From positions 1,184,001 to 1,248,000 of the forward strand of contig JBEKFP010000001.1 in NCBI GenBank assembly GCA_050013255.1: DNA of 64,000 bases, in the 5' to 3' direction. Within the stretch, counting starts at the first letter, position 1, and every line of letters begins with the position of its first letter. The notes beneath the pieces are model-generated. The model saw only the letters and a list, made by a program, of their open reading frames with translations, was not told the origin of the DNA and made no database searches. This DNA is from Candidatus Bathyarchaeia archaeon. GTDB lineage: Archaea > Thermoproteota > Bathyarchaeia > 40CM-2-53-6. This document shows, piece by piece, positions 8,579 through 51,789 of the stretch. The translations under genes were made by a program, and so were the position numbers.

Positions 8579-8775
8579 CGAATGCGCAGAGTCTTGCCCG
8601 CGTAGCCTAGGATCGTTCCCAACTGCTACCACATTCGGTTTTTCCTGCGGATACACCATAGGGGAAACTTGTGCGGAGTTTCTGGTGATTTAAGCGTCCA
8701 GATTGTAATGCCTCAGAAAAAAAACAAGCCATAGTGTTATTAGGACTGCGAGTAGTCCATCTCTGGGAAAATACC

Positions 8776-11491: not shown

Positions 11492-11494
11492 GAG

Positions 11495-18266: not shown

Positions 18267-18275
18267 CCTTCGCCC

Positions 18276-19580: not shown

Positions 19581-19697
19581 GCTATAAGTCGATTTTGGCG
19601 AGGTTTCAACGGTGTGAATGGGAATTATGTTAAATGCATAATCGAAGCGGTCGTACAGTTGCAGTTGATTAGAGGACTGCTAGTGTGGTTGGGGAGA

Positions 19698-21317: not shown

Positions 21318-21330
21318 TGAAGTGAGAGGA

Positions 21331-21504
21331 ATGAGTGAAAATATCCTACAGCTTTTCACTTCAGAGTTGAAGGTAATCAACATTGGGCTTGAGCTTTTCC
21401 GGGACGCGTTAGAGGCTCAAGGTGTCGACGTGGCACAAGTCTCGTGGCAGATGCCCATTAAACTTGAGAAAGAGTATGAGGACATTCTCTCGAAGATACT
21501 CTAA
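21331..21504 (+). CDS. Small FdrA-associated domain protein
   Basis: LKVINIGLELFRDALEAQGVDVAQVSW motif, normally fused to FdrA or YahG. Confidence 0.8.
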   Translation: MSENILQLFTSELKVINIGLELFRDALEAQGVDVAQVSWQMPIKLEKEYEDILSKIL

Positions 21505-21577
21505 CCTCTCTTCTTCGCCTCTTTTGTGATTTGCCGAATAATTGTCGTTAACCGGGTGGCGGGTCAATGGTTTCGCA

Positions 21578-22111
21578 TTAGTTGGATTGTTCGTTCTTCT
21601 TTTTTGTCTTCCTAGGTGGCTGGGGAACTGCGATTTCCTGTTCCTGCCTTTGCTCTTTCGCGTATTCGAGAATGGCTTCAATCATCTGCTTGTAGGTTCC
21701 ACAACGGCAGATGTGGCCGCTAAGGAATTCCCTGATCTCCCGTTCTGTTGGGTTCGGATTCCGCTTTAGAAGATATTGTGCGGTTAGTACGAAAGAAGGC
21801 GTGCAGAAACCGCATTGCATCGCCGCTTTTTCAACGAAAAGTTTCTGGAGACGGGAGAGTTGCCCTTCCGGTGCAAGCCCTTCAGCCGTCGTAACTTCTT
21901 TCCCTTTTGCCTCCAACGCCAGTACGAGGCATGACTTCACAGGTTTACCTTCGAGGAGAACCGTGCATAGGCCGCACTCTCCGCGCCAGCATCCGGCCTT
22001 AACGCTCTTCACTTCGGCTTTGTCGCGGATGAGGTCGAGCAGAAGGACGTTATCTTTCGTTTCAATTTTCTTGGGAACGCCGTTTATCTTGATGTCGATT
22101 ACTTGAGTCAA
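21578..22111 (-). CDS. Xanthine dehydrogenase/CoxS-family [2Fe-2S] subunit (copy 2)
   Basis: GCWRGECGLCTV, QCGFCTP, ICRCG. Confidence 0.95.
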   Translation of the reverse strand: MTQVIDIKINGVPKKIETKDNVLLLDLIRDKAEVKSVKAGCWRGECGLCTVLLEGKPVKSCLVLALEAKGKEVTTAEGLAPEGQLSRLQKLFVEKAAMQCGFCTPSFVLTAQYLLKRNPNPTEREIREFLSGHICRCGTYKQMIEAILEYAKEQRQEQEIAVPQPPRKTKKKNEQSN

Positions 22112-22116
22112 TCTTC

Positions 22117-23013
22117 CTACGCTCCAAGAACTCTACCGAGTGCCTCGATGGCCAGGACTTCTAGTATATGTGATCGGTACTCAGCCGTGCCTAGAACATC
22201 TGTCATCGGTTCGACAGTTTTCTTGATCACTTGCACAGCTTCGTCTATGAGTTGTGGAAGGGGCGCTTTTCGGTTGAAGGTCTTCTCAACCTCATAGACT
22301 CTGCTCGGTATTGGGGCAAGTGCGCCATAGGCGAATCGTACTATTCGATCTTCCGCGCGTGACGGGTTTGCGCACAAAGCTGCAACGTTTACCACGCTAA
22401 ACTCACTGTTCGAAGTATGTTTCAGGAATATGCTTCTTGCGTTGTCTGGTGGGGCTTTCAAATGGACAGCAACCGCGATCTCGTTCGGTTCTAGCGCGGT
22501 TTCCGCTAAACCTTTTATGAATTCCTTAATCGGAATCAGCCTTCTTCCCTTGACACTTGCCGCTTCGATTTCTGCGTCGAAGATCAGTAGTGGGGTTGGT
22601 GAGTCGACGAAGGGTAAGGCCTCGCATAGGTCGCCGAGGAGTGTGGAACGGTTTCTCAGGACGGGGTCGCTTAGTTCTGCGCCGCAGTCGTACATTGCTG
22701 TATACCTTTCCTGCAAGGGCCTCCAGTCTAGGAGCTGGCTTAGTGTGACCGTTGCCCCGATCGTTATTCCCTTCGGGCCTCCGTCGCTAAGTGTCTCGAG
22801 TTCTGGTATGCCTTTGATGTCCACGACGTATGAGGGGCTGACCAGGCGTTCCTTCATGAACGCGAGTAGGCCAACGCCACCTGCCATTACCTTAGCGTCG
22901 TCTTTGTGCTCGTCGAGCACTTGGAGTGCTTCCTGCAATGAAGCCGGTTTGAGATATTGAAAGTCAGGCAGGGTTAGGTAGGGTGAGCCAAATGACGTCT
23001 CAATTACCCCCAC
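22117..23013 (-). CDS. Xanthine dehydrogenase/CoxM-family FAD subunit (copy 2)
   Basis: FQYLKPASL, AGGVGL, IGATVT, RNRSTLLGD, AEYR. Confidence 0.93.
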   Translation of the reverse strand: MGVIETSFGSPYLTLPDFQYLKPASLQEALQVLDEHKDDAKVMAGGVGLLAFMKERLVSPSYVVDIKGIPELETLSDGGPKGITIGATVTLSQLLDWRPLQERYTAMYDCGAELSDPVLRNRSTLLGDLCEALPFVDSPTPLLIFDAEIEAASVKGRRLIPIKEFIKGLAETALEPNEIAVAVHLKAPPDNARSIFLKHTSNSEFSVVNVAALCANPSRAEDRIVRFAYGALAPIPSRVYEVEKTFNRKAPLPQLIDEAVQVIKKTVEPMTDVLGTAEYRSHILEVLAIEALGRVLGA

Positions 23014-25375
23014 TCATCTTCAAGCGGTTTTTCGCTTCCTCGATGAGTTCAGGCCTTTGTTGTTGGATTGCTCTCCAAACGTTCTCGGGTGACATCGGCA
23101 ATTTCGTAATCTGGACTCCAATTGCATGAAAGATAGCGTTGGCAATCGCTGGGGCAACACCAATCATAACAAGTTCACCTATGCCCCTAGCACCGTGAGG
23201 GCCGTCTTTCTGTGGAGTCTCAATAAGAATTCCGTCGATCTCACTAGGTACTTCTTTGGCTCTGAGTATCTTGTAGTTAGATAAATTCGGGTTCAGAACC
23301 CAACCTTGTTCGTCGAAGAGAATTTCTTCGTGAAGTGCAACGCTCTGTCCCATGATGAAGCCGCCATCAATTTGACCCTTCAATAGGAGTGGGTTGATCG
23401 CTTTGCCGACATCATAGGCCTGAGACGCCTTGATGATTTCAATGTCCCCCGTCAAGACATCAACTTCTACTTCGACGCCGGTACCACCGAACGTGTGGAA
23501 GATTGTGGGGACTCCCTGGCCCGTGTCGGGGTCAAGATAGGTCGTTAATGCTGACATGAATTTGCCCCGGCCTATGATTGGCCCTCCAATCGAACGTCCG
23601 TCTGGATATGTGTACCCAAACACAACCTCGCTGAGTTGTAGCCCGTGCCACGGAACACCGCTCACAAAGACCCTTTCGTCTGCTATCTCAAGCTCTTCGG
23701 GCCGCACTTTGAGGACTTGGGCTGCAACTTCCCTTATCTGATCCTTAGCATCCTTGGCCGCATCTATCAACGCGGCGCCATCAGTGAAAAGCCCGCGGCT
23801 ACCCACCGTCTGCCATGTGTAAGCCGACGTATCCGTGCTACGTACAAGCCCGACGTGAACCTTATCGAATGGTATACCCAATTCATCGGCGACGAGTTGG
23901 CAGAGCCCCGTAGGGGTGCCTTGGCCGAATGATCCAGTTCCGATTAGGAGATCGACTGAAACATCTTCATTGAACTTTATGATCGCAGAGGCAGCAGCGT
24001 TTGGTGGTTGTGCTGGACCCTTGAGGCAGAGTGCCATACCCTTCCCCCTGAATCTGCCTGGACGTGTGGGCTTCTGGGAGGGGAGCCCCCAACCGATTGA
24101 TTTGGCAACAGACTTTGCAACGCTCACAGGGTCTCCAGCGTCTTCGCGGAGTCGCTCTCCTGTTCCTGTTTCCGAGATTCCTGGTTTCAGTAAATTCTTC
24201 AATCTGATTTCGACTGGGTCGAGCTTTAATTTTTCAGCCGCCATATCCATGACGCGTTCCAGCGCCCAGTGGCTCTCTGGGTAGCCGAATCCTCTCATCG
24301 CACTTGTGGGGACTTTTGTTGTGTAAACTGCGAGCGACTCGCATTGGATGTTCGGGACCTCGTAGCATCCTTCGGAAGAATATCCGGCGGCTCGGCAGAC
24401 GTTCACTGTGTAGTCTGCGTAGCCGCCCGCGTCCATGACGAAGCGAGCTTTGTACGCGAACAGTTTCCCATCTTTCTTGAACCCCGCCTTAACAGATGCG
24501 TGAAATCCTTCTCTTACAGGTGCAGAGCAGAATTGTTCCTTTCTCGACAGGACGAGCTTAACGGGCTTGTAGCCTGCCTTCTTGGATAACAGTGCAACTA
24601 GCGGCTCCCACCCGATTCCAACTTTGCCCCCGAAGCCTCCTCCGCACAGAGGGGCCTTGATGATCACCTTGTTGACTGGAATCCCAAGCGAGAGAGCCAT
24701 CAGATAACGTGTGGAGAAGGGCGATTGGGTGCTCGTCCAAATCTCGACCGTTCCATCCTTCTTGTAATCGGCTATTATGGACTGTAGTTCCATGAAGCCG
24801 TGGCTTACATGTGGAATGTCGAATTCTCCTTCGATGATTACGTCTGCTTCTTGTAGGCCTCTCTCAGCGTCACCCCTCACCAGTTTGAATTGGTTCGCAA
24901 TGTTGGTGCCTGGGATAGGTTTGAAGGCGGGAGAGACTCGGTACTCTGACATCCTTTCATGTATTATCGGAGCATTGGGCTTCAGCGCCTCACCGGGGTC
25001 GAAGATGCCGGGTAACGGCTCATATTCCACTTCAACTTGATCGATACCGCGCTCAGCTGCTTCCAATGATTCTGCGATAACCGCGGCGACAGGATGGCCA
25101 ACCCACCGGACTTTGTCGACGGCGAGGACGTCTCTGTCGCCTACGTAAATGCCCAGCCTGTAAGGAAATTCGGCGCCCGTTGCAACAGCAACAACACCTG
25201 GCACGCTTTGGGCTTTGCTCGTGTCAACCTTGACGATTCTCGCATGTGCATGGGGGCTCGTTACCAGTTTGGCGTACAGCATTCCCGCGAGTTCGATGTC
25301 GAATGCGTAGGTTGCGGTTCCAGTGACTTTGAGGTAGGAATCATACTGAGGGATGGATTTTCCAATGTAACCCAT
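23000..25375 (-). CDS. Xanthine dehydrogenase-family molybdopterin subunit (copy 2)
   Basis: KVTG, GGGFGGK, SAMRGFG, GQG, TVGSR, GQIDGG, GARGIGE. Confidence 0.95.
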   Translation of the reverse strand: MGYIGKSIPQYDSYLKVTGTATYAFDIELAGMLYAKLVTSPHAHARIVKVDTSKAQSVPGVVAVATGAEFPYRLGIYVGDRDVLAVDKVRWVGHPVAAVIAESLEAAERGIDQVEVEYEPLPGIFDPGEALKPNAPIIHERMSEYRVSPAFKPIPGTNIANQFKLVRGDAERGLQEADVIIEGEFDIPHVSHGFMELQSIIADYKKDGTVEIWTSTQSPFSTRYLMALSLGIPVNKVIIKAPLCGGGFGGKVGIGWEPLVALLSKKAGYKPVKLVLSRKEQFCSAPVREGFHASVKAGFKKDGKLFAYKARFVMDAGGYADYTVNVCRAAGYSSEGCYEVPNIQCESLAVYTTKVPTSAMRGFGYPESHWALERVMDMAAEKLKLDPVEIRLKNLLKPGISETGTGERLREDAGDPVSVAKSVAKSIGWGLPSQKPTRPGRFRGKGMALCLKGPAQPPNAAASAIIKFNEDVSVDLLIGTGSFGQGTPTGLCQLVADELGIPFDKVHVGLVRSTDTSAYTWQTVGSRGLFTDGAALIDAAKDAKDQIREVAAQVLKVRPEELEIADERVFVSGVPWHGLQLSEVVFGYTYPDGRSIGGPIIGRGKFMSALTTYLDPDTGQGVPTIFHTFGGTGVEVEVDVLTGDIEIIKASQAYDVGKAINPLLLKGQIDGGFIMGQSVALHEEILFDEQGWVLNPNLSNYKILRAKEVPSEIDGILIETPQKDGPHGARGIGELVMIGVAPAIANAIFHAIGVQITKLPMSPENVWRAIQQQRPELIEEAKNRLKMSGGN

Positions 25376-25528
25376 TTTCTAGGCCTCTCAATTTCGGTAG
25401 TTCAATACGATGCGTTGAGTTCTCGCTTTAACCGTATCGTACCTGAAGGACATTCAGGACCGGGTGTCTGTCTGTTTTGAACGTTACCTAACTATATGAA
25501 ACTCTCCTTCGAAGAATGCGCCCTCTTA

Positions 25529-26002
25529 CTAGTGTGGATTAATCTTTGAAGCGTCTAATATTGCGTTAATGATTTGCCGGTAGCCCGTGCATCTACAGAG
25601 GATTCCCTCAACGGATTCTACGACTTCTTCGCGGGTGGGTGACGGGTTTCTTTTGAGTAGAGCTGTTGCGACGAGGACTGCTGCCGGCGTGCAGAAACCG
25701 CATTGAAGTGCTCCATGCTCGATGAACTTCGTTTGAAGAGTGGAAAGGGCGCCTTCTTTGGTAATGCCTTCGATTGTTGTTATTTTGTGTGCGTTCGCTT
25801 CGACAGCAAGTACAAGACAGGATTTCACGGGCTCGTCATCAAGAAGGATTGTGCAAAGGCCACAATCACCACGTTCACACGCAGGTTTGGCGCCAGTTAA
25901 TCCAAGTTTGTGTCGCAGGATCCAAAGCAAGGTCTTGTTGGCGTCAGTTTCGATGGTGTGTCGTTTTCCGTTCACTGTCAGCTCAATCAAATGTTTCGTC
26001 AA
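25529..26002 (-). CDS. Xanthine dehydrogenase/CoxS-family [2Fe-2S] subunit (copy 1)
   Basis: CERGDCGLCT, QCGFCTP, LCRCTGY. Confidence 0.95.
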   Translation of the reverse strand: MTKHLIELTVNGKRHTIETDANKTLLWILRHKLGLTGAKPACERGDCGLCTILLDDEPVKSCLVLAVEANAHKITTIEGITKEGALSTLQTKFIEHGALQCGFCTPAAVLVATALLKRNPSPTREEVVESVEGILCRCTGYRQIINAILDASKINPH

Positions 26003-26003
26003 C

Positions 26004-26867
26004 TCAGCTAGCCTCCCACAATTGCTTCACCAATCTCCTGGTCAGAACTTTCACTAGGTTGACGCGGTATTCCTTCCCAGCTCTCACGTCCGTAATTGGG
26101 GAGACGGCTTTCATTACGACTGGTATGGCCTCGTCAACAAGTTCGTCGACTGGCCTGTCTTTCCTGAAGATTTTTTCGGCTTCAAAAGCTCGAACCGGTG
26201 TGGGCGCTACTGAAGCGTACGCAAGCCTGATTTCCTTCCCAGACCCACCGGTAGGAGCCGCGAGCCCGCCCACTCCGACCACTGCCAAGTCCTCACCCAT
26301 CGTTCTTCGAGCCTTCATGTAGGCGCTGATTGATTTCTCAGGAGGTATGGGAAGATCGATGGAAGTAACTAGCTCGTTACCGGCAAGGATGTTCTTCTTC
26401 ACGCCGGTAAAGAATTGATGAATTGGGACCTTCTTTGTGCCATCTTGCGTTGAGATGTTCACCGTTGCATTGAGAACCAAGAGGGCTGGCGCTGTGTCTG
26501 CTGCGGGGGAGGCATTGCAAATATTTCCGACCAAAGTTGCTCGGTTTCGAACCTGAAAGTCTCCGATGGTGCTCGCAGCTTCTCTCAGAATTGGGTAGTT
26601 CTTTGAGACCGCGTCATGACGAATTAGCCGATTCAGCGTCACACCGGCCCCGACCGTAAGCCCGGACTTATCGTTGAATGATAGGTTTTGAAGTTCTTTG
26701 ACTCTTTTGATGTCGATTAGGTATTTTGCGGGTTCCTGTCCGCCCCTTAGGCTGACTAGTAGGTCCGTCCCACCAGCTAGAGGTCTTGCATCCTTTCCGT
26801 ACTTGTCTAAGAGTGAGAATGTTTCTTGGAGGCTTTCAGGGCCGAAGTAGTCGAACTTTGGGAGCAT
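26004..26867 (-). CDS. Xanthine dehydrogenase/CoxM-family FAD subunit (copy 1)
   Basis: AGGTDL, QVRNRATLVGNICNASPAAD; ATG at 26867 after AGGTGA. Confidence 0.95.
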   Translation of the reverse strand: MLPKFDYFGPESLQETFSLLDKYGKDARPLAGGTDLLVSLRGGQEPAKYLIDIKRVKELQNLSFNDKSGLTVGAGVTLNRLIRHDAVSKNYPILREAASTIGDFQVRNRATLVGNICNASPAADTAPALLVLNATVNISTQDGTKKVPIHQFFTGVKKNILAGNELVTSIDLPIPPEKSISAYMKARRTMGEDLAVVGVGGLAAPTGGSGKEIRLAYASVAPTPVRAFEAEKIFRKDRPVDELVDEAIPVVMKAVSPITDVRAGKEYRVNLVKVLTRRLVKQLWEAS

Positions 26868-26872
26868 GCATG

Positions 26873-29221
26873 TCACCTGTTTCTTGTGAGCAGTTCCGGC
26901 TTCTGTTTCTTGATTGCAGCCCACACCCGTTCCTGCCTCATCGGAAGGTCGAACAGCTGCACTCCCGAGGCATCGAAAACGGCGTTCGCAATTGCCGGAG
27001 GTATCGAGAGCATTGTAAGCTCTCCGATGCCTCTCGCGCCGTACGGGCCATCGGATTGTGGATTCTCGATTAATGTGACAACGTGTTCTTCAGGCATGTC
27101 TGAGGCTCTGGCAATTTTGTAATCGGTGAAATTGCTATTGAGCATCGCTCCGGCTTCGTTGTAGACGTAACCCTCCATCAACCCGATGCTCAACGATTGG
27201 AGCATCCCCCCGTACACCTGCCCCAGTACAAGGAGGGGGTTGATGGTTTTCCCTATGTCGAATGCTGAGGCGACTTTGAGAACTTCGATTTCTCCAGTGT
27301 CCGGATCGAGTTTAATCTTGACTCCCTGCGCCCCGAAAGTCCACTTCAATGCCGGAAATCCTTGGCCCGTCTCAGGGTCCAAGTAGGTTAGCCCGCGCGG
27401 AACGTATGAGCCACGCCCGATGACGGGGCCGCCTATTGCCGAACCATTAGGGTATGTGTAACCCATAGCGAATTGTTGAATGGGTATCCCTTTGTCGGGT
27501 TGCCCTCGTGGAAAGACCATTTCGTTTTCGAGGATTAGTTCCGATTTGGAAACCCTGAGGGCTTGTGATGCCATGTCGATGATCTGTTCTTTCGCATCCC
27601 GTGCAGCACTGATTACTGCCTTCCCTTCCATGAAGAGGTTCCTACTTGCGACTGTCTGCCATGAGTAAGGTGTCAGGTCTGTGATTCTCTCTGGGACGAC
27701 ACGGATTTTCTCAATTGGTAAGCCTAATTCTTCAGCAGCCATCTGCGCCAGACTGGTTGTCGTCCCCTGGCCGATTTCAGTTACACCAACGGCCAGGCTG
27801 GCGCTTCCATCTTCATTGAACTTTATGATGGCAGATGAGCCTGCATTCGGCGGCATCGCTGGGGCTTTCCAAAGGGCCGCGATACCCATTCCGTATAGCT
27901 TGCCGTCTGCGGCAGGCGGTTGTTTTCCTCCCCACCCAAGTTTTTCCGCAACCGTTCTGATGCACTGATCCACTCTCCCAGCGTCTTCCCTAAGCTTCTC
28001 GCCTGTAGCTGTAATCGAGCCTGGTCGGAGAGCATTTCGTAGCCGAATTTCAACCGCGTCGATGCCAAGCTTGTTGGCGAGGATGTCCATCTGACGTTCT
28101 ATTGCCCACAAGAACTCGAGATGGCCGAAGCCTCGGAATGCTGTTCCATATGGGTGGTTCGTGTAGACGGTAATTGAGTCGCAGTGAATGTTCGGAACTT
28201 CGTATGGGCCGGTGCAGGCGTATCCGGCAGCGCGGCCAATGTTGACGCCATAGTCCGCATAAGCACCAGCATCGTACACGTACTTTATTTGTTCCGCGAC
28301 GATTTTGCCTTTTGCGTCAACCCCTGTCTTGATCCATCCGTAGAATCCTTGCCTGAGTGGAGCGGTTGTAAGTTCTTCCTCTCGAGTCAAGGAGAGTTTG
28401 ACTGGGCGTCCTTCGGAAAACTTGGATAGCAAAACTACTAGGGGCTCAAAGTTGATGCCCGCCTTACCTCCGAAACCTCCGCCGACATGGGGTACGTGAA
28501 CGTTGATTTTTTGGAGTGGAATTCCAAGCGCGTGGCTCAGTATGTACCTAACCGCGAAAGGTGATTGGGCGCAGGTCCAGACCTCGGCGCTTCCGTCTTG
28601 GAAGTACTGGGCTATGCATGCGCGCGGTTCCATGGCCGCATGGCTTACTTGTGGCATTGAGAATTCGTTCTCAACGACAACGGTTGCGTTTTCGAAACCT
28701 GACTTGATATCGCCTTTGCGCACTTTAAAGATGTTCGCAATGTTTGTTCCGGGAATAGGGGTGAAGACAGGGGAGTGTTCGTATTGAGCCAAGTTTTCGT
28801 GAACTAGCGGTGAACCTGGCTTCAGAGCCTCGTTCACATCAAAAACAGGCGGCAGTGGTTCATATTTCACATCGATGAGGTCGATTGCTTCCTCAGCTGC
28901 TTCCTCACTTTCAGCCGCAACGGCTGCGACTGGCTCCCCGGCCCACCTGACCTTGTCTTTCGCCAGAACCATCTTATCACGTACGTACAAGCCCATTCTG
29001 TAAGGGAAGGCTTGACCTGTAATGGCGGCTTCAACACCTGGATATTTTTCCGCCTTCTTCACGTCGATGCTAAGAATGCGAGCGTGTGCATGTGGGCTCC
29101 GGAGGAACTTGGCGTACAGCATGCCCGAGACTTCTAAGTCCGCAACAAACTTCGTCGTTCCAGTAACTTTCTCGAACGCATCGACACGGGGTATGCTCTT
29201 GCCAACGTACTTGTAACTCAA
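26873..29221 (-). CDS. Xanthine dehydrogenase-family molybdopterin subunit (copy 1)
   Basis: VGKSIPRVDAFEKVTG, GGGFGGK, TAFRGFG, EIGQG, TVASR, GARGIGE; TTG start chosen (ORF open from 29281). Confidence 0.95.
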   Translation of the reverse strand: MSYKYVGKSIPRVDAFEKVTGTTKFVADLEVSGMLYAKFLRSPHAHARILSIDVKKAEKYPGVEAAITGQAFPYRMGLYVRDKMVLAKDKVRWAGEPVAAVAAESEEAAEEAIDLIDVKYEPLPPVFDVNEALKPGSPLVHENLAQYEHSPVFTPIPGTNIANIFKVRKGDIKSGFENATVVVENEFSMPQVSHAAMEPRACIAQYFQDGSAEVWTCAQSPFAVRYILSHALGIPLQKINVHVPHVGGGFGGKAGINFEPLVVLLSKFSEGRPVKLSLTREEELTTAPLRQGFYGWIKTGVDAKGKIVAEQIKYVYDAGAYADYGVNIGRAAGYACTGPYEVPNIHCDSITVYTNHPYGTAFRGFGHLEFLWAIERQMDILANKLGIDAVEIRLRNALRPGSITATGEKLREDAGRVDQCIRTVAEKLGWGGKQPPAADGKLYGMGIAALWKAPAMPPNAGSSAIIKFNEDGSASLAVGVTEIGQGTTTSLAQMAAEELGLPIEKIRVVPERITDLTPYSWQTVASRNLFMEGKAVISAARDAKEQIIDMASQALRVSKSELILENEMVFPRGQPDKGIPIQQFAMGYTYPNGSAIGGPVIGRGSYVPRGLTYLDPETGQGFPALKWTFGAQGVKIKLDPDTGEIEVLKVASAFDIGKTINPLLVLGQVYGGMLQSLSIGLMEGYVYNEAGAMLNSNFTDYKIARASDMPEEHVVTLIENPQSDGPYGARGIGELTMLSIPPAIANAVFDASGVQLFDLPMRQERVWAAIKKQKPELLTRNR

Positions 29222-29287
29222 ATCTCGCACGCAGAAAGGTTCACGCTTATCCAAAGCCTTGTGCTTGGCGTAGACACTCAAGCTCGC

Positions 29288-29728
29288 CTATTGAGCAACC
29301 TTCTGGCTGACGCAATCGAGGGTCTGAGTGATGATTTTTTGGGCTGCGTTCTCGAGTAGGCCTTTAGCGATGCTTCCTAGGGGGCCACTTATCGTGGCGT
29401 CCGCAGCCCAACTCAATTCTGTGCCTTCAGGGACTGGGTTGCAGTTGATTGAAATCTCTGCTTTGAATGCGCTCGTTACGCCGGAACCATCCACCAGCAG
29501 TTTCGCATGATGATTTACAGGGTCTTCCTCCGTCACTCTACTGTTAACTCTGAACGATCCTTTGATGAATCCAATGCCTATCTTCGTTTTTGCCTCGATC
29601 TTTTTTCCCTCAGTTATCTTGTACTCCTCGACTCCGGGTAGGCACTGAGCGATTGATTCAGGCGTCGAAATGAAATTCCATAACTTTTCGACAGGGGCCT
29701 TTACAACCGCTTTCGATTCAAAATGCAA
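29288..29728 (-). CDS. CoxG/SRPBCC-family accessory protein
   Basis: APVEKLWNF...CLPG, IGIGFIKGSF, ISGPLGS. Confidence 0.88.
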   Translation of the reverse strand: MHFESKAVVKAPVEKLWNFISTPESIAQCLPGVEEYKITEGKKIEAKTKIGIGFIKGSFRVNSRVTEEDPVNHHAKLLVDGSGVTSAFKAEISINCNPVPEGTELSWAADATISGPLGSIAKGLLENAAQKIITQTLDCVSQKVAQ

Positions 29729-43129: not shown

Positions 43130-44533
43130 GTGTTAACGCCCGGTGTGGGTCAGATAATGGATAAAATTCTCATAGAAGAGTTCGAGAGGATCGTAGGGAA
43201 GCCTAACGTAGTAACTAACATCGAACAAATGCAAAATTACCTAGTCGATGAAACCCCTCCCTCAGTCAGGCCGAAGCCAGCTAACGATCTTGCTTTGATA
43301 AGGCCGGCCGATACTCAACAGGTCTCCTCGGTGCTACGACTTGCGAGCAAGAGTCGGCTGCCGGTTTTCCCTAGAGGAGGCGGCACGGGCCTTGTGGGCG
43401 GTGCCGTCCCGACGAGGGGCGGGATAATCCTCTCAATGGAGAGGATGAACGGAATCGAGATAGACGAAGCCAATCTCCTAGCGATCGCAGATGCCGGGGT
43501 CACGCTCGGAGGGCTTGTGAACGCAGCGGAAGAGGTCGGCTTATCTTTTCCACCCCATCCGGGCGATGAACATGCCCAGGTGGGCGGGCTCGTGGCGACG
43601 AATGCTGGAGGGTCCCGAGCAGTGAGACACGGGGTGATGAGAAATCAGGTTAGGGGAATGGAAGCCGTGCTTCCGACTGGAGAAATATTGAAGCTTGGAG
43701 GGCGGCTCCATAAGAACAACGTAGGGTACGACCTTATGCAGCTCATTATAGGTAGCGAAGGAACGCTTGCAGTAATAACCAAAGTGATCCTCCGACTCTA
43801 CCCCAAGCCTGGAGCAACGATGACCCTCATCGTGCCCTACGACAACCGACACGATGCACTATCAAGCGTCCCAAAGATACTGCATTCAAGCACCCCGCTC
43901 GCCGTAGAGTATGTCGAGAGAGACCTACTGGAGAGAACCGCAAAACGCCTAAACGCAAATTGGCCGGTAAAGACGGGAAGAAGCCATCTAATCGTAATGA
44001 TGTCCGAACCCAACAGAGATCAAGTTCTTTCAGAAAGCCTCAAAGTAGCGGAAATATGCCGAGAGAACACGAATTACGAAACGTTTGTTGCGGAATCAAA
44101 GAGTGACCAAGATAATATTCTCAGAATAAGAAGCGACATTTACTTCGCCTTGAAGAGCGAAACGATGGACCTCTTGGACATAACTGTGCCCACTGCTGAG
44201 TTAGAGAAAGTGATGGGAGAGATAGAGAACGTCGCGACGAGACGGGCCGCCTTGCTCGAAGTCTTTGGGCATGCAGCGGATGGGAACCTTCACGTCCACA
44301 TAATGAAAAAAGAAGGCGAGGGCGCAAAATACGTGGAGGACCTGAGGAACGAGATCTATGAGATTGCGACGAGGGCTGGGGGCGTAATTACGGGGGAGCA
44401 CGGAATCGGGAAGATAAGGACGAAGAAGCTCGAATCGCTCATGACGAGGAAAGAGTTCGAACTGATGAAGAGCGTTAAGAGGATGTTCGATCCGGACGGG
44501 ATACTGAACCCTGGAACCAAGATACCTGCCTAA
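43130..44533 (+). CDS. FAD-linked oxidoreductase, GlcD/D-lactate dehydrogenase family
   Basis: RGGGTGLVGGA, GSEGTL, GHAADGNLH, TGEHGIG, LNPG. Confidence 0.92.
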   Translation: MLTPGVGQIMDKILIEEFERIVGKPNVVTNIEQMQNYLVDETPPSVRPKPANDLALIRPADTQQVSSVLRLASKSRLPVFPRGGGTGLVGGAVPTRGGIILSMERMNGIEIDEANLLAIADAGVTLGGLVNAAEEVGLSFPPHPGDEHAQVGGLVATNAGGSRAVRHGVMRNQVRGMEAVLPTGEILKLGGRLHKNNVGYDLMQLIIGSEGTLAVITKVILRLYPKPGATMTLIVPYDNRHDALSSVPKILHSSTPLAVEYVERDLLERTAKRLNANWPVKTGRSHLIVMMSEPNRDQVLSESLKVAEICRENTNYETFVAESKSDQDNILRIRSDIYFALKSETMDLLDITVPTAELEKVMGEIENVATRRAALLEVFGHAADGNLHVHIMKKEGEGAKYVEDLRNEIYEIATRAGGVITGEHGIGKIRTKKLESLMTRKEFELMKSVKRMFDPDGILNPGTKIPA

Positions 44534-44748
44534 GGCTCGTTGAGCCGGGCCTGTAGACCGGTTCGTATGAGGGGATCGAGGCGTAAAATGAGGCGAGGGT
44601 TGCCTTCGTTTGGCACCGTTTGGCACCACCCCAAGATGGGTGGATCCACCCTCTTCCTTGCGAAAGGTTGTGGCGAAGCTACGGGATTTTGGCCATCATG
44701 GGAGCAGGGTTGTGCGCGCACGCTTGACAGGGGGGGTAGGGGGGGTGG

Positions 44749-44802
44749 GGTTCTGGTAACTTTTGAAGGGGGCTTTTCTCAGTGGTAACTGGGTAGGGGG
44801 GC
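44749..44802 (+). repeat. Left copies of motif GGTTCT(G/A)GTAACTT-Nx-GGGGG
   Basis: 44749-44773 ggttctggtaacttttgaagggggc; 44783-44802 tggtaactgggtaggggggc. Confidence 0.75.
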
Positions 44803-44838
44803 GTTTTAAATGGCTATCATCACCTATGAAAGATAGCC

Positions 44839-45566
44839 ATGTATCAGAAACTCGGCCATTCCCTAGTGAAGTTCGTAAAGGCCATCTTCGGACTTGCCTT
44901 CATGCTCATAGTTACGGTTGGATTAGCGGTTGCGGCAGTCTACCTGATTCAACTCGTACTCATCCCAGCGGCCCAAGGGTTCGTATCGAATCTAGCCGTT
45001 ATCGTTGGCATAACGGAAGTTATCATAGCGATAGCCATAGGCGCAGAGGCTTTTGTTGGAGTTTCCACTTTTTTATGGAACGACGAGATAGGCACTATCA
45101 CTACTTGAATGAGCAAGTTTTCAAGCCTCTTTCAGAACTCCGAGTAGAACGGAAGTCCACTCCAACTAGAACAGAAATCCACCTATTGTCGATACGAGTT
45201 CCGAAAGATGCCTATCTGTGGGAGTCTGCGGTAAAGCACATGATGAAAGGCGATGAACTTAGACGGGGTATGCCTGAGTTTATCAAGAAAGTTGAGAAGA
45301 AGATTGAGGTTCACAATCAACAAGCCGCTTCTTTCAGTGGACCAGAGTTGGAAAATGCCGTAGAAGATTTGATGCGTGCTCAAAGAGGAAGGGGAGAGGT
45401 TAGACTCACTGACCTAGAACGTAGCACAAGCGAGATTGATGCCGATGTAGAGGCCATACGAGGCGCATTTTCCTCTATATCTAAGGCCATTGAAGTTGAC
45501 CAGTATAGCGTAAAGGCGGATTGCTGTCCGACAATTAGAACCATACTAAGGCAATATTGGTTCTAG
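44839..45566 (+). CDS. Hypothetical two-TM membrane protein whose soluble domain lies in the -1 frame (split at T TTT TTA, 45069-45075)
   Basis: ORF 44839..45108 (hydrophobic) overlaps ORF 45075..45566 (hydrophilic). Confidence 0.55.
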
Positions 45567-45737
45567 TCCTCGTTCTTCGCTAGATCGAAGGGCAACGAAT
45601 CTACTACGACTACCTACGCCCACACACAGCCCTCGATGGCAAGACACCAGCGCAAGCGGCTGGAATCGAACTTGGCTTGACAGGGAACAAGTGGGAATCC
45701 ATAATAAGAAAGTCTGCAAAGAATTGCTCTGATAGAC

Positions 45738-45932
45738 ATGCCAACAATATTCAAGACCAAACGTAGCATTGATACGCGTATTGTGAGTAATGCAATCCGA
45801 AACGCTGGCTTCAAAGACATTTCAATGGTTGTATCTTCAGATGACAACAACAATACCACTATCGTTAGGGTCGATTCGCCGCTAAGCCCAGAAGACGAAA
45901 CGAAGATCAGGAAAATAGTCGACGGTCTCTAG
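45738..45932 (+). CDS. Small hypothetical protein
   Basis: 64-aa ATG ORF with plausible alpha/beta amphipathic pattern. Confidence 0.55.
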   Translation: MPTIFKTKRSIDTRIVSNAIRNAGFKDISMVVSSDDNNNTTIVRVDSPLSPEDETKIRKIVDGL

Positions 45933-45935
45933 GCT

Positions 45936-46012
45936 GCCCCCAGAAGTTACCAGACCAACAAACCACCCACCTAAGTTACTAGAACCTACAACGCTGTACC
46001 CCCTACAAGTTG
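45936..46012 (-). repeat. Middle inverted copies of the G-string motif
   Basis: Reverse complements: ggtctggtaacttctgggggc (45936-45956), ggttctagtaacttaggtgggtg (45964-45986), partial aacttgtagggggt near 46000. Confidence 0.75.
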
Positions 46013-46017
46013 AAGGA

Positions 46018-46344
46018 ATGCAAATGGGCGACAAAACCGTCTTCCTAAAAGATGTAACCATTGCTTTTCTATCTACGAGTGCGCTGCTTCTTACATTGGT
46101 CTTGGCATTCATTTCACCGTCACTTCCAAAATTGGCGGTCACGAAATACCTAGTTTTGTTTGCAACAGTAGGGTTCTTCTTTACCGGTTTTATGAGCGCA
46201 TATACCTTAGTTGCTTTAGGAGGCGTTGTTGGAGGTGACGATAGAGCACTAGGAGTGCGAAGCCTGTTACTCTTCCAATTCTTTCCTTTCTTTCTAGGAC
46301 TGCTCTTTCTCTTGGTAGCCGTCGTGCTTGAACTCCAGCTCTAA
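46018..46344 (+). CDS. Small three-TM membrane protein
   Basis: Three hydrophobic helices in 108 aa. Confidence 0.6.
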   Translation: MQMGDKTVFLKDVTIAFLSTSALLLTLVLAFISPSLPKLAVTKYLVLFATVGFFFTGFMSAYTLVALGGVVGGDDRALGVRSLLLFQFFPFFLGLLFLLVAVVLELQL

Positions 46345-46346
46345 GT

Positions 46347-46407
46347 GCCCCCCAGTTGTTAGCACCAACAAAATCTAGACGTGCCCCCCATCCAACTTAG
46401 CAGAACC
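46347..46407 (-). repeat. Right inverted copies of the G-string motif
   Basis: Reverse complements: ggtgctaacaactggggggc (46347-46366), ggttctgctaagttggatggggggc (46383-46407). Confidence 0.65.
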
Positions 46408-46607
46408 GGGGGTGGTGCATTTTTTGGAGTCAGACGGGGTTGATTTTGGGCCGTTTTGGTTGGAGAGCAACATCAGGCTTGGGATGTTTTGGTTATCATG
46501 TACCTCTTCCCTGGCGAATATGGTCCTCTTCATGTGCGAATGTATTGGCCAGCATACATATCCAATGATTGGGTGTCATACACCCGGACGCCCCTTGGCC
46601 TCTTATC

Positions 46608-46751
46608 TTAGAGTCTGGGCAGGTATTCGCGCATTAGAAGACCGCACTTTGCGCATCTTACGAGTTTGAGGAGCCTTCCGTCCTTGTCGAAGTCTTCCCC
46701 AATCTCGTGCACGCGCGTGTGTTGGCAGTCTTCAAGGATTAGTGACTGCAT
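46608..46751 (-). CDS. 47-aa zinc-finger microprotein (not in ORF track)
   Basis: MQSLILEDCQHTRVHEIGEDFDKDGRLLKLVRCAKCGLLMREYLPRL; CxH...CxxCG; GAGGCG upstream. Confidence 0.65.
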   Translation of the reverse strand: MQSLILEDCQHTRVHEIGEDFDKDGRLLKLVRCAKCGLLMREYLPRL

Positions 46752-46819
46752 TCTCTCGCCTCTATGCCATACGGAATAATATTTCGTGTTCTTAAGCCAA
46801 TCCTCTGACTGTCAAAAGC

Positions 46820-47137
46820 CTACGGGCTGGGTGGCTTGGACTTACGTAGGCATAGACCGAGCCAGACTATTCCGATGATGGCGATGACCACAGCTACGAG
46901 CATCACGCTACCCACGATGCCCCCATACGGGTTGACGTTTCCGAACTGGCGAACCCTCGTAAAGTTCCCAAACTGATTTCCCGTGAAGTTTCCTGGATTG
47001 AAGGAAGGGCGGGATCGAAACATTTGGCTGAACATGTACGAACGAACAGCATTGTACGCCGTGGTTACAGCCGCAAGAACCACGCCAACCAAAGCCACTA
47101 AGTACGCATATATTGTCTGCTTATCATTACCGACCAA
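46820..47137 (-). CDS. Small two-TM protein with Gly/Asn/Phe-rich loop
   Basis: TM - FNPGNFTGNQFGNFTR..FGN - TM; NxT sequons. Confidence 0.65.
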   Translation of the reverse strand: MVGNDKQTIYAYLVALVGVVLAAVTTAYNAVRSYMFSQMFRSRPSFNPGNFTGNQFGNFTRVRQFGNVNPYGGIVGSVMLVAVVIAIIGIVWLGLCLRKSKPPSP

Positions 47138-47426
47138 TTAACTACACACCGTAGTTAGCCCTCTACCCAGCCCACTATATAACCCGCATGGATGAATCAT
47201 CCACCGAACCTCGTAATATGTCGAGAACCCACCTAAGACAGGCTCCCCAAGGCCGTCTTCGTTTGGCGGCTCGTGTTGTCAAAAACTGTTTTTACAGCCC
47301 CGGACACCAAACACGAACTTGTCAGCAGTTCTTCAGAGATTGGACTGTCACCTTGACACTGTTCTATTTGTGATCAACTTGCAGCAACTCATAAACGTAA
47401 ACGAGGCAACTTCCAAGTGGGATTAA

Positions 47427-47918
47427 ATGCAGTCAACTACACGCTGCCCCCGCTGCGGATATGTGCTGACCTACAGCGGGTCCGCGTATTATTGCAACTT
47501 CTGCGGTTATCCTCGAACGCAAGATACACTTACCCCAGCACTTCATTCCCTTAAGAAGAAGGTTAGCGATAGAATCCAACGATTTCTCGCCGAACTCAAA
47601 CCCAAGATACCGCCTCAACCAAGCTACTATCCGGTTAATGTCATCATGCAGCCTTGCATCAACTGCAGCTTTAGCTTTCCAAAAATGGCCCAAATCTGCC
47701 CTTCCTGCGGCACACAGCGCGCAATTGTTTCCCAAAACACTACGGAAATTTCGACTACTGGAACTCATGACCTTGACCGCAGAGTTTTCGATTATATTTC
47801 CGCCCATGGAGGAACTATCTCTCTCTCACAAGCTGCGCAGGATCTCGCTATCACCCAGGCGACCTTGCTCACATCCATCGAGCGACTGAAAAACGGAGGA
47901 TTCCTGAGTCAGTCTTGA
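47427..47918 (+). CDS. Double zinc-ribbon protein with C-terminal winged-helix domain
   Basis: CPRC..CNFC, CINC..CPSC; VFDYISAHGGTISLSQAAQDLAIT...IERLK..GFL. Confidence 0.8.
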   Translation: MQSTTRCPRCGYVLTYSGSAYYCNFCGYPRTQDTLTPALHSLKKKVSDRIQRFLAELKPKIPPQPSYYPVNVIMQPCINCSFSFPKMAQICPSCGTQRAIVSQNTTEISTTGTHDLDRRVFDYISAHGGTISLSQAAQDLAITQATLLTSIERLKNGGFLSQS

Positions 47919-48464: not shown

Positions 48465-49427
48465 TTGTTAGAGCAATACAGCGCTCTAAACGAGCACGGG
48501 CATCGTGAGAATAGTATCGAACAGACTGCTGGAACGATTTTTGATATAGTAAAATTCTCCACCCACGACGGCCCAGGAATCCGAACGGCCGTCTTCTTCA
48601 AAGGGTGTCCCCTTCATTGCTGGTGGTGCCACAACCCTGAGGGGCAGTTTTCAGTAGCGCAACTCGTTTACCGGGAAGAGAGATGCATCCGATGCTTCAG
48701 TTGCGTAGAAGCGTGCCCGAATCGTGCCATCAAGATCGTAGACGGTACTCCAACTATTCTGAGAGATGCCTGTAGGCTTTCTGGCCTGTGCGTTCGGGTG
48801 TGCCAGACGAAAGCTAGAGAAATGGCGGGGAAGCGGGTCAGGGTCTCCGATGTTATGGAAGAGGTGGAGAAGGACAATATCTTCTATGACGAATCTGGGG
48901 GCGGGGCCACCTTCTCAGGCGGCGAACCCTTCATGCAACCCACCTTTCTTCAAAACCTACTTGAAGCCTGTAAGGAGAGAAGGATCCACACCGCCGTGGA
49001 GACTTGCGGGTTCGTAAACGCCGAGACTCTGATGGCCAGCTGCCCGTACGTGGATTTGTATTTGTACGATTTGAAGGTCATAGATAACGAAACGCATCGT
49101 AGGTTCACCGGCGTGTCGAATGAATTAATACTGAAGAACTTGCGGCAACTATCCCGCTCCCACGAACATGTGATTGTTCGCTTTCCCATTATCCCAGGCG
49201 TGAATGACGATGACGAGAACGTCCTTCGACTGGGCGAATTCGTGTCATCGTTGGGAAGCGTGAAAGAAATTGATGTTCTTCCCTACCACGAACTTGGCGT
49301 TGAAAAGTACAAGCGACTTGGAATGATGAATAGAATGCCGGAAGTCGAGCTGCCTTCCTCCGTGAGAGTGAGTGGGATAGTGGAGAAATTGGAAGGTTTT
49401 GGCTTATTGGTTAAGGTAGGAGGTTGA
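48465..49427 (+). CDS. Glycyl-radical enzyme activating protein (radical SAM with ferredoxin insert)
   Basis: HDGPGIRT.VFFKGCPLHCWWCHNPE, CIRCFSCVEACP, GGATFSGGEP; start uncertain. Confidence 0.95.
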   Translation: MLEQYSALNEHGHRENSIEQTAGTIFDIVKFSTHDGPGIRTAVFFKGCPLHCWWCHNPEGQFSVAQLVYREERCIRCFSCVEACPNRAIKIVDGTPTILRDACRLSGLCVRVCQTKAREMAGKRVRVSDVMEEVEKDNIFYDESGGGATFSGGEPFMQPTFLQNLLEACKERRIHTAVETCGFVNAETLMASCPYVDLYLYDLKVIDNETHRRFTGVSNELILKNLRQLSRSHEHVIVRFPIIPGVNDDDENVLRLGEFVSSLGSVKEIDVLPYHELGVEKYKRLGMMNRMPEVELPSSVRVSGIVEKLEGFGLLVKVGG

Positions 49428-49431
49428 CGAG

Positions 49432-51789
49432 ATGAATGAAAGAGTGAAGAAGCTTAGGCAACAAAGCTTGGATACGAAACCGGGGATCTCAAGTGAAAGA
49501 GCCGAATTAATGACAGAATTCTACGAGCACTCCTCAGAATCTAGCGCCCCTATCAGAAGAGCTCTCGCATTCAAGCACTTAATGGAAAGCAAGACGATCT
49601 GCATAGGTGACGAAGAGTTAATCGTGGGTGAAAGGGGCCCCGCCCCGAAGGCTACTCCCACATACCCGGAGCTGTGCTGCCACAGCCTCGAGGACCTTCA
49701 AATTCTCAATGACCGAAAGAAGATTCCCTTTGCAGTCGACGATCAGACGCGAAAGCTCTACCAAGATAGGATTATTCCGTTCTGGCGAGGCCGAACCATC
49801 CGTGACATCCTCTTTTCAGAGATGTCGGAGGAGTGGAAAGCAGCATACGAGGCCGGCATCTACACCGAATTCATGGAGCAACGCGCCCCAGGCCATACCG
49901 TTTTGGACGATAAGATCTACCGCAAGGGATTCCTAGACTTCAAAGCAGACATCGAGAATGCGAAGCAAAAGCTCGATTACCATAACGACCCAGACGCTTA
50001 CAGGAAACAGAAAGAACTCGAAGCTATGACCATTTGCTGTGATGCCATCATCAGGTTTGCTGAACGCCACGCTGAGAAAGCGCGCGAGATGGCTCAGCAT
50101 GAAACCAACCCTCAACGAAGAGAGGAACTGGAAAGAATTGCTGACGTTTGCTCATATGTTCCCGCGCATGCACCACGCGACTTCTGGGAGGCACTGCAGG
50201 CTTACTGGTTCGTTCACTTAGGCGTAATCACGGAACTCAACACGTGGGATTCCTTCTGCCCCGGCCACCTTGACCAGCACCTGTTCCCGTTCTACAAGAA
50301 AGGGCTCGGGGACGGAACTCTAACAAGGGACACGGCGAGGGAACTCTTGGAATGCTTCTGGGTCAAGTTCAACAATCAACCCGCGCCGCCGAAAGTCGGT
50401 GTAACGGCGGAGGAGAGTGCCACGTACACGGACTTCGCAAACATCAACGTTGGCGGCCTAAGGCCGGACGGTTCCGATGGAGTCAACGAACTCAGTTACT
50501 TGATCTTAGATGTAATTGATGAGATGAGGCTCGTGCAACCCTCTTCGAACATTCAACTCAGCAAGAAAAGTCCCGACCGTTTTCTAAAGAGGGGATGCGA
50601 GATTATTAGAAAGGGATGGGGGCAACCCTCGATATTCAACGTTGACCTAATTGTCGACGAACTGGTCCGCCAAGGAAAAGCCGTTGAAGACGCGCGGTCA
50701 GGGGGGATAAGCGGCTGCGTTGAGACGGGCTGCTTTGGCAAGGAAGCCTACATACTCACAGGGTACCTGAACTTACCAAAGATACTGGAAATTGCCCTAC
50801 ACAAGGGAGTGGACCCGCGCACGGGCAAGAAGATAGGATCCACCACAGGCGACCCTACTGAGTTCAACTCTTTCGACGAAGTCTTTGATGCCTTCACTAA
50901 ACAATTGAAGCATTTCGTTGATATCAAGGTTAAAGGTAGCAATATTATCGAAAGACTATTCGCCACGCAAATGCCCGCCCCATTTCTATCAACGATAATC
51001 GATGATTGCATCAAGAACGGCAGAGACTACAACGACGGCGGCCCACGCTACAATACAACCTACATAATGCCCGTTGGAATTGGCACGTTAACGGACAGCC
51101 TAACCGCGATCAAACATCATGTTTTCGATGAGAAGCATTTGAGCATGGAGCAGATGCTGAAGACGCTCGAGGACAATTTTGAAGGACACGAAGTAATCCG
51201 GCAAATGCTCTGGAATAAGACGCCGAAGTACGGAAACGACGACGACTACGCCGACGCCCTATTGAGGGCCTCATTCGATTCATTGTACCACATAATTAGC
51301 GGCCGAAAGAACACGAAGGGAGGATTCTACGCAGTCAACTACCTTTCCACAACCTGCCACATCTACTTCGGCTCAGTTGTGGGTGCAACTCCCGACGGAA
51401 GACACGCGCATGAGCCATTATCCGAAGGTGTCTCGCCCGTGCAAGGAGCGGATACACATGGGCCTACAGCCGTGATAAAGTCCGTTGCCAAAATGGACCA
51501 GGTTCGCGCGGGTGGAACGCTACTAAACCAGAAATTCTCCCCATCACTCCTAGAGGGCGAATTGGGGATTGACAACCTGGCACACCTGGTGCGGTCTTAT
51601 TTCAAGTTGGATGGCCACCACGTCCAAATGAATGTCGTGACTGCGGAAACTCTACGTGCAGCACAAGCAAACCCAGAGAAATACCGGGACTTGATCGTTC
51701 GAGTAGCAGGTTACAGCGACTACTTCTGCGACCTCGGCAAGACACTGCAAGACGAGATTATTGCTCGGACAGAACACAAGTCCTTCTAG
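49432..51789 (+). CDS. hypD: Glycyl radical enzyme, trans-4-hydroxy-L-proline dehydratase type
   Basis: EFMEQRAPGH, NTWD, PAPPKVG.T.EESATYTDFANIN, SGCVETGCFGKEAY.LTGY, TTCHIYFG, RVAGY. Confidence 0.88.
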   Translation: MNERVKKLRQQSLDTKPGISSERAELMTEFYEHSSESSAPIRRALAFKHLMESKTICIGDEELIVGERGPAPKATPTYPELCCHSLEDLQILNDRKKIPFAVDDQTRKLYQDRIIPFWRGRTIRDILFSEMSEEWKAAYEAGIYTEFMEQRAPGHTVLDDKIYRKGFLDFKADIENAKQKLDYHNDPDAYRKQKELEAMTICCDAIIRFAERHAEKAREMAQHETNPQRREELERIADVCSYVPAHAPRDFWEALQAYWFVHLGVITELNTWDSFCPGHLDQHLFPFYKKGLGDGTLTRDTARELLECFWVKFNNQPAPPKVGVTAEESATYTDFANINVGGLRPDGSDGVNELSYLILDVIDEMRLVQPSSNIQLSKKSPDRFLKRGCEIIRKGWGQPSIFNVDLIVDELVRQGKAVEDARSGGISGCVETGCFGKEAYILTGYLNLPKILEIALHKGVDPRTGKKIGSTTGDPTEFNSFDEVFDAFTKQLKHFVDIKVKGSNIIERLFATQMPAPFLSTIIDDCIKNGRDYNDGGPRYNTTYIMPVGIGTLTDSLTAIKHHVFDEKHLSMEQMLKTLEDNFEGHEVIRQMLWNKTPKYGNDDDYADALLRASFDSLYHIISGRKNTKGGFYAVNYLSTTCHIYFGSVVGATPDGRHAHEPLSEGVSPVQGADTHGPTAVIKSVAKMDQVRAGGTLLNQKFSPSLLEGELGIDNLAHLVRSYFKLDGHHVQMNVVTAETLRAAQANPEKYRDLIVRVAGYSDYFCDLGKTLQDEIIARTEHKSF

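Follow-up and report, generated by a model that had tools for sequence, protein, structure and literature searches.

Inward-facing G-run repeat arrays in a Bathyarchaeia genome mark a probable decayed, non-autonomous IS6-family element

A 64,000-nucleotide stretch of the genome of a Candidatus Bathyarchaeia archaeon (assembly GCA_050013255.1, contig JBEKFP010000001.1, positions 1,184,001 to 1,248,000), referred to here as the window, contains arrays of a short repeat whose copies end in a run of G residues and face inward around several small open reading frames (ORFs). A first-pass annotation of this DNA, made from the sequence alone, offered three explanations for the arrays: a divergent replication origin, the ends of a non-autonomous mobile element, or the recombination sites of a gene-cassette system. 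Our analysis points firmly to the second. The segment 44749-46407 (1659 bp) is very probably a non-autonomous, decayed insertion sequence (IS) of the IS6 family, belonging to a subgroup with a long transposase that is found in Bathyarchaeia. The element inserted into pre-existing intergenic sequence downstream of an FAD-linked oxidase (glcD-like) gene, duplicating 8 bp; of its transposase gene only the final ~46 codons survive, and its ends are homologous to those of intact copies, two of which, at loci L001 and L002, are described below. The arrays are one left end and two right ends, one internal (R1) and one terminal (R2). The parts of the element and its immediate flanks are as follows.

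44712-44748, + strand: left half of the interrupted target, with the G-runs at 44730-44745; aligns to L001 8719-8753
44741-44748, no strand: left copy of the 8-bp target-site duplication, GGGGGTGG; identical to 46408-46415
44749-44806, + strand: left end, with outer subsite 44749-44773 (tip) and inner subsite 44778-44802; nhmmer match 44749-44799, E 2.5e-7
44839-45108, + strand: passenger ORF-A, 89 aa, predicted membrane protein
45075-45566, + strand: passenger ORF-B, 163 aa counted from the ATG at 45075; the open frame extends back to 44763 (267 aa), overlapping ORF-A
45584-45766, + strand: IS6-family transposase remnant, equivalent to residues 331-376 of 378, followed by a diverged tail and a stop codon
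45738-45932, + strand: passenger ORF-C, 64 aa, overlapping the end of the remnant and stopping 4 nt before R1
45933-45986, - strand: internal right end R1, with inner subsite 45936-45957 and outer subsite 45963-45986 (tip 45986); nhmmer match 45986-45933, E 6.3e-6
45996-46020, - strand: seventh, weak repeat copy just outside the R1 tip; nhmmer E 7.4, model positions 48-63 only (inner half)
46018-46344, + strand: passenger ORF-D, 108 aa, membrane protein, stopping 3 nt before R2
46345-46407, - strand: terminal right end R2, with inner subsite 46347-46369 and outer subsite 46383-46407 (tip 46407); nhmmer match 46407-46341, E 3.9e-7
46408-46415, no strand: right copy of the 8-bp target-site duplication, GGGGGTGG; identical to 44741-44748
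46416-46456, + strand: right half of the interrupted target; aligns to L001 8756-8795

Six clear copies of the repeat and one weak copy, read directly from the sequence, all lie within 44749-46407. Their core is (GGTTCT)G-N-TAAC-TT, followed after 2-5 nt by a G-run. The six clear copies, each written 5' to 3' on its own strand, are given here.

44749-44773, + strand: GGTTCTGGTAACTT-ttgaa-GGGGGC
44778-44802, + strand: ctcagtGGTAACTG-ggta-GGGGGGC
45957-45936, - strand: tggtctGGTAACTT-ct-GGGGGC
45986-45963, - strand: GGTTCTAGTAACTT-ag-GTGGGTGG
46369-46347, - strand: gttggtGCTAACAA-ct-GGGGGGC
46407-46383, - strand: GGTTCTGCTAAGTT-ggat-GGGGGGC

The first-pass annotation had counted about seven copies; six are clear, and the seventh is not significant and is possibly a relic of another end. 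The motif exceeds chance. With up to three mismatches the 14-mer occurs 11 times in the 64-kb window, compared with 4.73 ± 2.30 times in 100 shuffled sequences, none of which reached 11. Four of the five matches with two mismatches or fewer fall within 44749-46407, and a G-run follows none of the seven window matches outside it. A half-site pattern (core plus G-block) gave six matches in the window, all within 44749-46407, and its null distribution in 200 Markov sequences had a mean of 0.66 and a maximum of 3. That pattern was derived from the tested sites themselves; the independent test was a hidden Markov model (HMM) built only from five ends of L001 and L002, with none from the window. The model found three matches in the window (E values of 2.5e-7, 3.9e-7, and 6.3e-6), each starting at model position 1, the predicted tip, and nothing else below an E value of 7.

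The first-pass annotation had overlooked both the transposase remnant and the 8-bp duplication. The translation of 45584-45766 carries the C-terminal signature of rve-type DDE transposases, with a weak match to rve_3 (E 0.0014). A search of the remnant against longer proteins identified 38 relatives, the best of which are ~380 aa long and 85-89% identical; most of the 38 carry PF13610 in their precomputed annotation. The portion encoded by 45584-45721 is 87% identical to residues 331-376 of the 378-aa transposase P0016, and at the nucleotide level the remnant is 84% identical over 129 bp to L001 10991-11119. P0016 matches PF13610, DDE_Tnp_IS240 (E 4e-16; 59.9 bits against a cut-off of 27), as well as rve_3 and a SWIM zinc finger. 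Its closest annotated relatives among 72,556 plasmids are labeled "IS6 family transposase" and belong to the long ISCpe7 type; identity is ~30% across residues ~97-359. No other transposase pieces were detected in the window by tblastn.

Intact copies were sought by scanning genome contigs with an alignment of six full-length transposases (A1); two loci were obtained from 53 pattern matches, both in metagenome-assembled genomes of Bathyarchaeia. In L001 the left end lies at 8817, with right ends at 11510 and 13745; in L002 the ends lie at 9714 and 11985. At both loci, the same two-part ends bound the transposase-bearing segment. Each end consists of an outer GGTTCTGNTAACTT with a G-run and an inner copy 29-49 nt farther in. 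The half-site pattern matched six times in L001 and four times in L002, with no match outside the ends. Across 67 bp, the window left end shares 82% identity with its counterpart in L001 (8817-8882), and R1 is equally close (82% across 50 bp) to the distal right end of L001 (13696-13745).

A common plan is followed by all eight ends, three from the window and five foreign. An outer subsite, GGTTCT(G/A)-N-TAA(C/G)TT, stands at the tip and is followed by a G-rich block; an inner subsite, (G/A)-N-TAAC with a G-run, is found in every end. The tip reads GGTTCTG in seven ends and GGTTCTA in one. Core-to-core spacings of the subsites are 29, 29, and 38 nt in the window, 29, 38, and 29 nt in L001, and 38 and 49 nt in L002. 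In all eight ends, the outer and inner subsites carry an identical variable eighth base (G/G, C/C, or T/T), which hints at homogenization or co-selection of the two. The ccaacaaa tail reported to be shared between clusters is present on both right ends of the window, but the L001 and L002 ends lack it. The description of the arrays as binding sites of an unknown protein was correct in spirit, although the likeliest candidate for that protein is the transposase of the IS6 family.

A perfect 8-bp duplication, GGGGGTGG, brackets 44749-46407, with its second copy directly adjoining R2, and L001 8817-13745 is bracketed by a separate perfect 8-bp repeat, CGCTTGGA. When the window flanks were joined in silico, with one copy of the duplication retained, they aligned across the junction to the uninterrupted sequence of L001 8719-8795; 57 of 79 columns were identical, and the score of 66 compares with a maximum of 39 in 1000 shuffles (z 12.8). 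On the strength of this similarity, the L001 stretch appears to be the nearest approach to an empty site obtained. The first-pass annotation had placed the start of the arrays at 44721, but the two G7 runs at 44730-44745 are target DNA that flanks the element and form no part of the repeat system. Remnant, matching ends on intact IS6-family copies, and duplication together substantiate its proposal that the arrays are the ends of a non-autonomous mobile element.

The interrupted DNA belongs to an ~80-bp sequence family, which was also observed beside the L001 element, uninterrupted at 8719-8795 and again at 13746-13796 after the distal end; each unit starts GCGCG(C/T)ACGCTTGGA. Both duplication-bearing elements lie in or beside this family, and no further copies of it were found in the window, L001, and L002 (106 kb). 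It may be a preferred target; equally, it could be an older decayed end or another small repeat. The tRNA scan of the window found no tRNA, and Rfam gave no match at the site in either the window or L001, so the interrupted target is not a known RNA gene; the only Rfam match in the 106 kb was a tRNA at L002 244-355. A longer, att-like direct repeat (CCTCTTCC...) was considered and rejected, as the alignment of the left and right flanks scored 20 against a null of 18.9 ± 2.4. A search of 44534-47420 for similarity to plasmid and phage DNA, in "distant" mode, returned no match and thus gave no sign of a known plasmid or virus.

The close association of arrays with stop codons, remarked on in the first-pass annotation, holds for both right ends: the stop at 45930-45932 is followed by a C-run at 45937, and the stop at 46342-46344 by a C-run at 46348. 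In L001, a 94-aa membrane ORF (11164-11448) directly follows the intact transposase gene and ends 3 nt before the C-run of the right end (11452-11510). Because the same layout follows an intact transposase in L001, a module of ORF plus array is the normal right-hand part of the IS. L001 is also three-ended, and there, too, the duplication joins the left end to the distal right end. The intact elements are larger than that of the window, from which the transposase gene is deleted (1659 bp); L002 measures 2272 bp and L001 2694 or 4929 bp, and the elements carry two to six extra ORFs. Their genomic neighbors are unrelated: a glcD-like gene in the window, tRNA-binding-domain and VIT-like genes at L001, and a type-B DNA polymerase gene at L002.

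We propose that the transposase, which in its full-length form would combine a SWIM zinc finger, a second zinc ribbon, and a DDE domain, binds the outer and the inner subsite alike at every end and cuts at the outer GG tip. The steps between spacings approximate one helical turn, which would suit a pair of sites bound on the same face of the DNA; the roles of the G-run and the inner subsite are likewise presumed. Any present movement of the element would require an intact copy to supply transposase in trans.

How three ends came to be present can be explained in two ways. More likely, they are left over from two copies in direct repeat, arranged as an IS6-type pseudo-compound structure, of which the second has been cut down to its right-hand ~420 bp; a three-ended layout is compatible with cointegrate movement but is not proof of it. 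A less probable alternative is a single transposon with a spare internal right end, which captures downstream DNA when the internal end is read through. In both duplication-bearing elements, those of the window and L001, the duplication joins the left end to the distal right end with the internal right end between them, as read-through would have it; the distal module of the window (ORF-D and R2, ~420 bp), however, resembles the right-hand part of an IS, as seen at L001 11138-11510 (373 bp, a membrane ORF and an end). Neither the window element nor L001 retains a left end or transposase trace of a second copy, and neither model of the three ends is proven.

A divergent archaeal origin, in which the arrays would be sites for an initiator, resembling origin recognition boxes (ORBs) and facing an unwinding region, would account for several features. 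The copies are inverted around a central region and end in a G-run, as ORB elements do according to passages of PMC4010727; the element is slightly richer in AT than its surroundings (GC 0.46, against 0.51 for the window), and cumulative GC skew has a local maximum at 44-47 kb. That maximum is one of two equal maxima in the 64 kb, 0.52 at ~22 kb and at ~46 kb, and the latter includes the G-runs themselves. Pfam identified no Orc1/Cdc6-type initiator among the 58 window ORFs scanned; the zinc-ribbon/winged-helix ORF at 47427-47918, for which no comparison with WhiP was made, gave only sub-threshold helix-turn-helix matches. The space between the arrays is full of ORFs, and since its lowest GC per 100 nt is 0.36, compared with a window-wide minimum of 0.34, no distinct unwinding element lies there. 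In two other genomes the motif flanks transposase genes, at loci that are unrelated, and it travels with target duplications. A fixed site, conserved in position on each replicon, is not what the window, L001, and L002 present, and the window flanks rejoin to a sequence that is uninterrupted in L001. We therefore regard an origin as extremely improbable.

An integron-like system, with each small ORF and its downstream array moved as a cassette by a site-specific recombinase, has hardly better prospects. It draws on the two successive modules of ORF plus array (45738-45986 and 46018-46407), whose arrays begin 3-4 nt past the stop codon, and on the cargo ORFs, which differ among the three elements. 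However, scans of 58 window ORFs and of the L001 and L002 elements turned up no recombinase of the tyrosine or serine type, and the DDE transposase is the only recombinase tied to the motif. The 8-bp duplications are a mark of transposition and not of site-specific recombination, and in L001 the sequence of a small ORF and then a right end follows directly on an intact transposase gene.

Several observations weigh against assigning 44749-46407 to a decayed IS6-family element. The generality of the end structure rests on eight ends from three genomes, those of the window and of the two related loci obtained, and the scan for intact copies in the window's own genome covered only these 64 kb. No intact transposase is present in the window, and mobility here is therefore historical. 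The canonical IS6 organization of 700-890 bp, a single ORF, and repeats of 15-20 bp is not seen. It is R2, not R1, that the duplication pairs with the left end, and variable base 8 differs between these linked ends (left, G; R2, C), whereas those of L001 agree (G and G). The ends of L002 have no matching 8-bp duplication (CTCCTCCT versus CGCTAGAA).

The decayed element nevertheless shares a number of characters with the IS6/IS26 group. Its relatives carry a PF13610 DDE transposase, at ~30% identity closest to the long zinc-finger members of the clostridial clade VII/h, of the ISCpe7 type. An 8-bp target duplication flanks both the window element and L001, the same length as described for the family in passages of PMC7986276. 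The terminal inverted repeat (TIR) consensus of IS6/IS26, as given in the text of PMC6807381, is GGTTCTGTTGCAAA, with conserved G1, G2, and G7; the GGTTCTG tip matches its first seven bases, including these three positions, but the ends depart from the bacterial consensus at bases 8-14. Directly repeated copies or ends in compound-like structures are also typical of the family, going by the portions of its literature drawn on here. On the other hand, the Bathyarchaeia transposase, at 378-389 aa, exceeds those of the family in length and bears a SWIM finger at its N terminus, and the host is an archaeon. The intact elements span 2.3-4.9 kb with several passenger ORFs, compared with 0.7-1.8 kb and one gene in IS6/IS26 (700-890 bp, with long members reaching 1.76 kb), and their ends extend over ~55-70 bp with two direct subsites and G-runs, in place of 15-20 bp repeats. 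Paired, phased subsites in each end, passenger genes, and the spare right end inside the element are out of the ordinary for IS6. In passages of the IS6-family reviews, ISDsp3 is the sole member named with a passenger gene, and the word "subterminal" is absent from their running text (supplements, TIR logos, and ISfinder aside). Passages of a 2026 survey of archaeal IS (PMC13343696) mention neither Bathyarchaeia nor SWIM.

In keeping both ends while the working transposase is gone, in having a flanking duplication, and in depending for mobility on functions in trans, the element is like miniature inverted-repeat transposable elements (MITEs) and other non-autonomous IS derivatives. Its 1659 bp, four ORFs, and additional internal end nevertheless go beyond the usual meaning of miniature. 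In Mu and Tn7, each end contains several directly repeated transposase-binding subsites, of which the outermost alone stands at the tip that is cleaved. The likeness would be one of function only, since the relationship is limited to the general DDE/rve fold and accessory transposition proteins are missing here. The two MITEs of the IS6 family cited in passages of PMC7986276 are 227 and 336 bp long. With archaeal ORBs, the arrays share inverted repeats and a terminal G-run, and they differ in having no adjacent initiator gene (58 ORFs, Pfam), no AT-rich unwinding element, and a motif that travels with a transposase.

None of the four small ORFs gave a match above the cut-off in Pfam and NCBIfam scans. 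For ORF-A, the only relative among 1.84 billion representatives was ORF-A itself. Small membrane ORFs occupy the equivalent position beside the L001 left end (23% identity) and the L002_b end (16% identity); at 16-23% identity homology is not proven, and we treat the small membrane ORFs of the elements as putative positional analogues. Homologues of ORF-B fall into three clusters (50-53% identity), two of which are of 265 aa, with homology reaching back to ~45009; the label of orphan genes given to these ORFs thus fits only in part. The 267-aa frame at 44763-45566 (+ strand) opens inside the left end and overlaps ORF-A in another frame, and the arginine/serine-rich N-terminal parts of the two 265-aa homologues resemble the same overprinted frame. 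An atlas search with ORF-C yielded only leads, every score being below 0.9. ORF-D has two weak homologues (E 1.3e-3 and 4.2e-3), with the N-terminal helix in common, and its own 90% cluster is on record from 29 contigs, a hint of multiple copies.

No significant similarity was detected between the passenger proteins of the three elements, and the sole cross-element match (E 0.008) proved to be translated left-end DNA, which is conserved. As the passenger ORFs are not detectably related, we conclude that cargo turns over between copies. The sequence TTTAAAT at 44808-44814, noticed by eye immediately internal to the left end, precedes the ORF-A ATG by 25-31 nt and is a possible archaeal TATA box for the passenger genes. 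A wider proposal, which we advance tentatively and judge unlikely to hold as it stands, is that Bathyarchaeia harbor a distinct IS6-related subgroup, with a SWIM transposase, two-subsite phased G-run ends, and spare internal ends that exchange small membrane-protein genes as cassette-like modules. Were such a subgroup real, it would have a multi-site end architecture otherwise known from Mu/Tn7-type elements.

The value of these results is mainly negative, in that an apparently new origin or cassette locus turns out to be an ordinary insertion-sequence remnant, whose G-string likeness to ORB is coincidental. Their value for mobile elements is modest: an IS6-related subgroup is documented in a poorly studied, uncultured archaeal lineage, and its long two-subsite ends and three-ended structures are not described in the consulted portions of the IS6-family reviews. 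With the end model, elements of this kind can be annotated in Bathyarchaeia genomes together with the cargo they carry.

The intact loci have further features of their own. Directly outside one IS end, L002 encodes a 470-aa ORF (12048-13460, + strand) with a match to DNA_pol_B_2, the organellar/viral, protein-primed type B (E 5.7e-14), and the IS may therefore lie inside or beside another mobile element or a virus-like region. Just outside the end labeled L002_a is a more diverged C-terminal remnant of an IS6-type transposase (9382-9507, - strand; 42-50% identity over ~40 aa), and because of this second remnant, we consider the locus to have been hit by repeated insertions. A small divergent ORF lies just upstream of the transposase gene at both loci (L001 9735-9926 and L002 9776-9937, both - strand). 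The L002 ORF matches the ribbon-helix-helix CopG family (E 3.5e-4), and the deleted copy in the window has no such ORF; the product may be a transposase regulator.

The genes of the window are archaeal in character, including Alba, a TFS-type zinc ribbon, and ribosomal protein L3, with most of the remainder being metabolic. The FAD-linked oxidase gene directly upstream of the element occupies 43130-44533. Two tandem paralogous sets of molybdopterin dehydrogenase genes (large, FAD, and 2Fe-2S subunits), followed by a CoxG-like gene, are found at 21578-29728 (- strand) and adjoin genes similar to those for oxamate carbamoyltransferase AllG/AllH (17349-19580); the neighborhood 17349-29728 suggests an island for the degradation of purines or heterocycles. 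About 2 kb downstream of the element, 48465-51789 (+ strand) encodes a 785-aa glycyl-radical enzyme, of pyruvate formate-lyase type, together with its radical-SAM activase.

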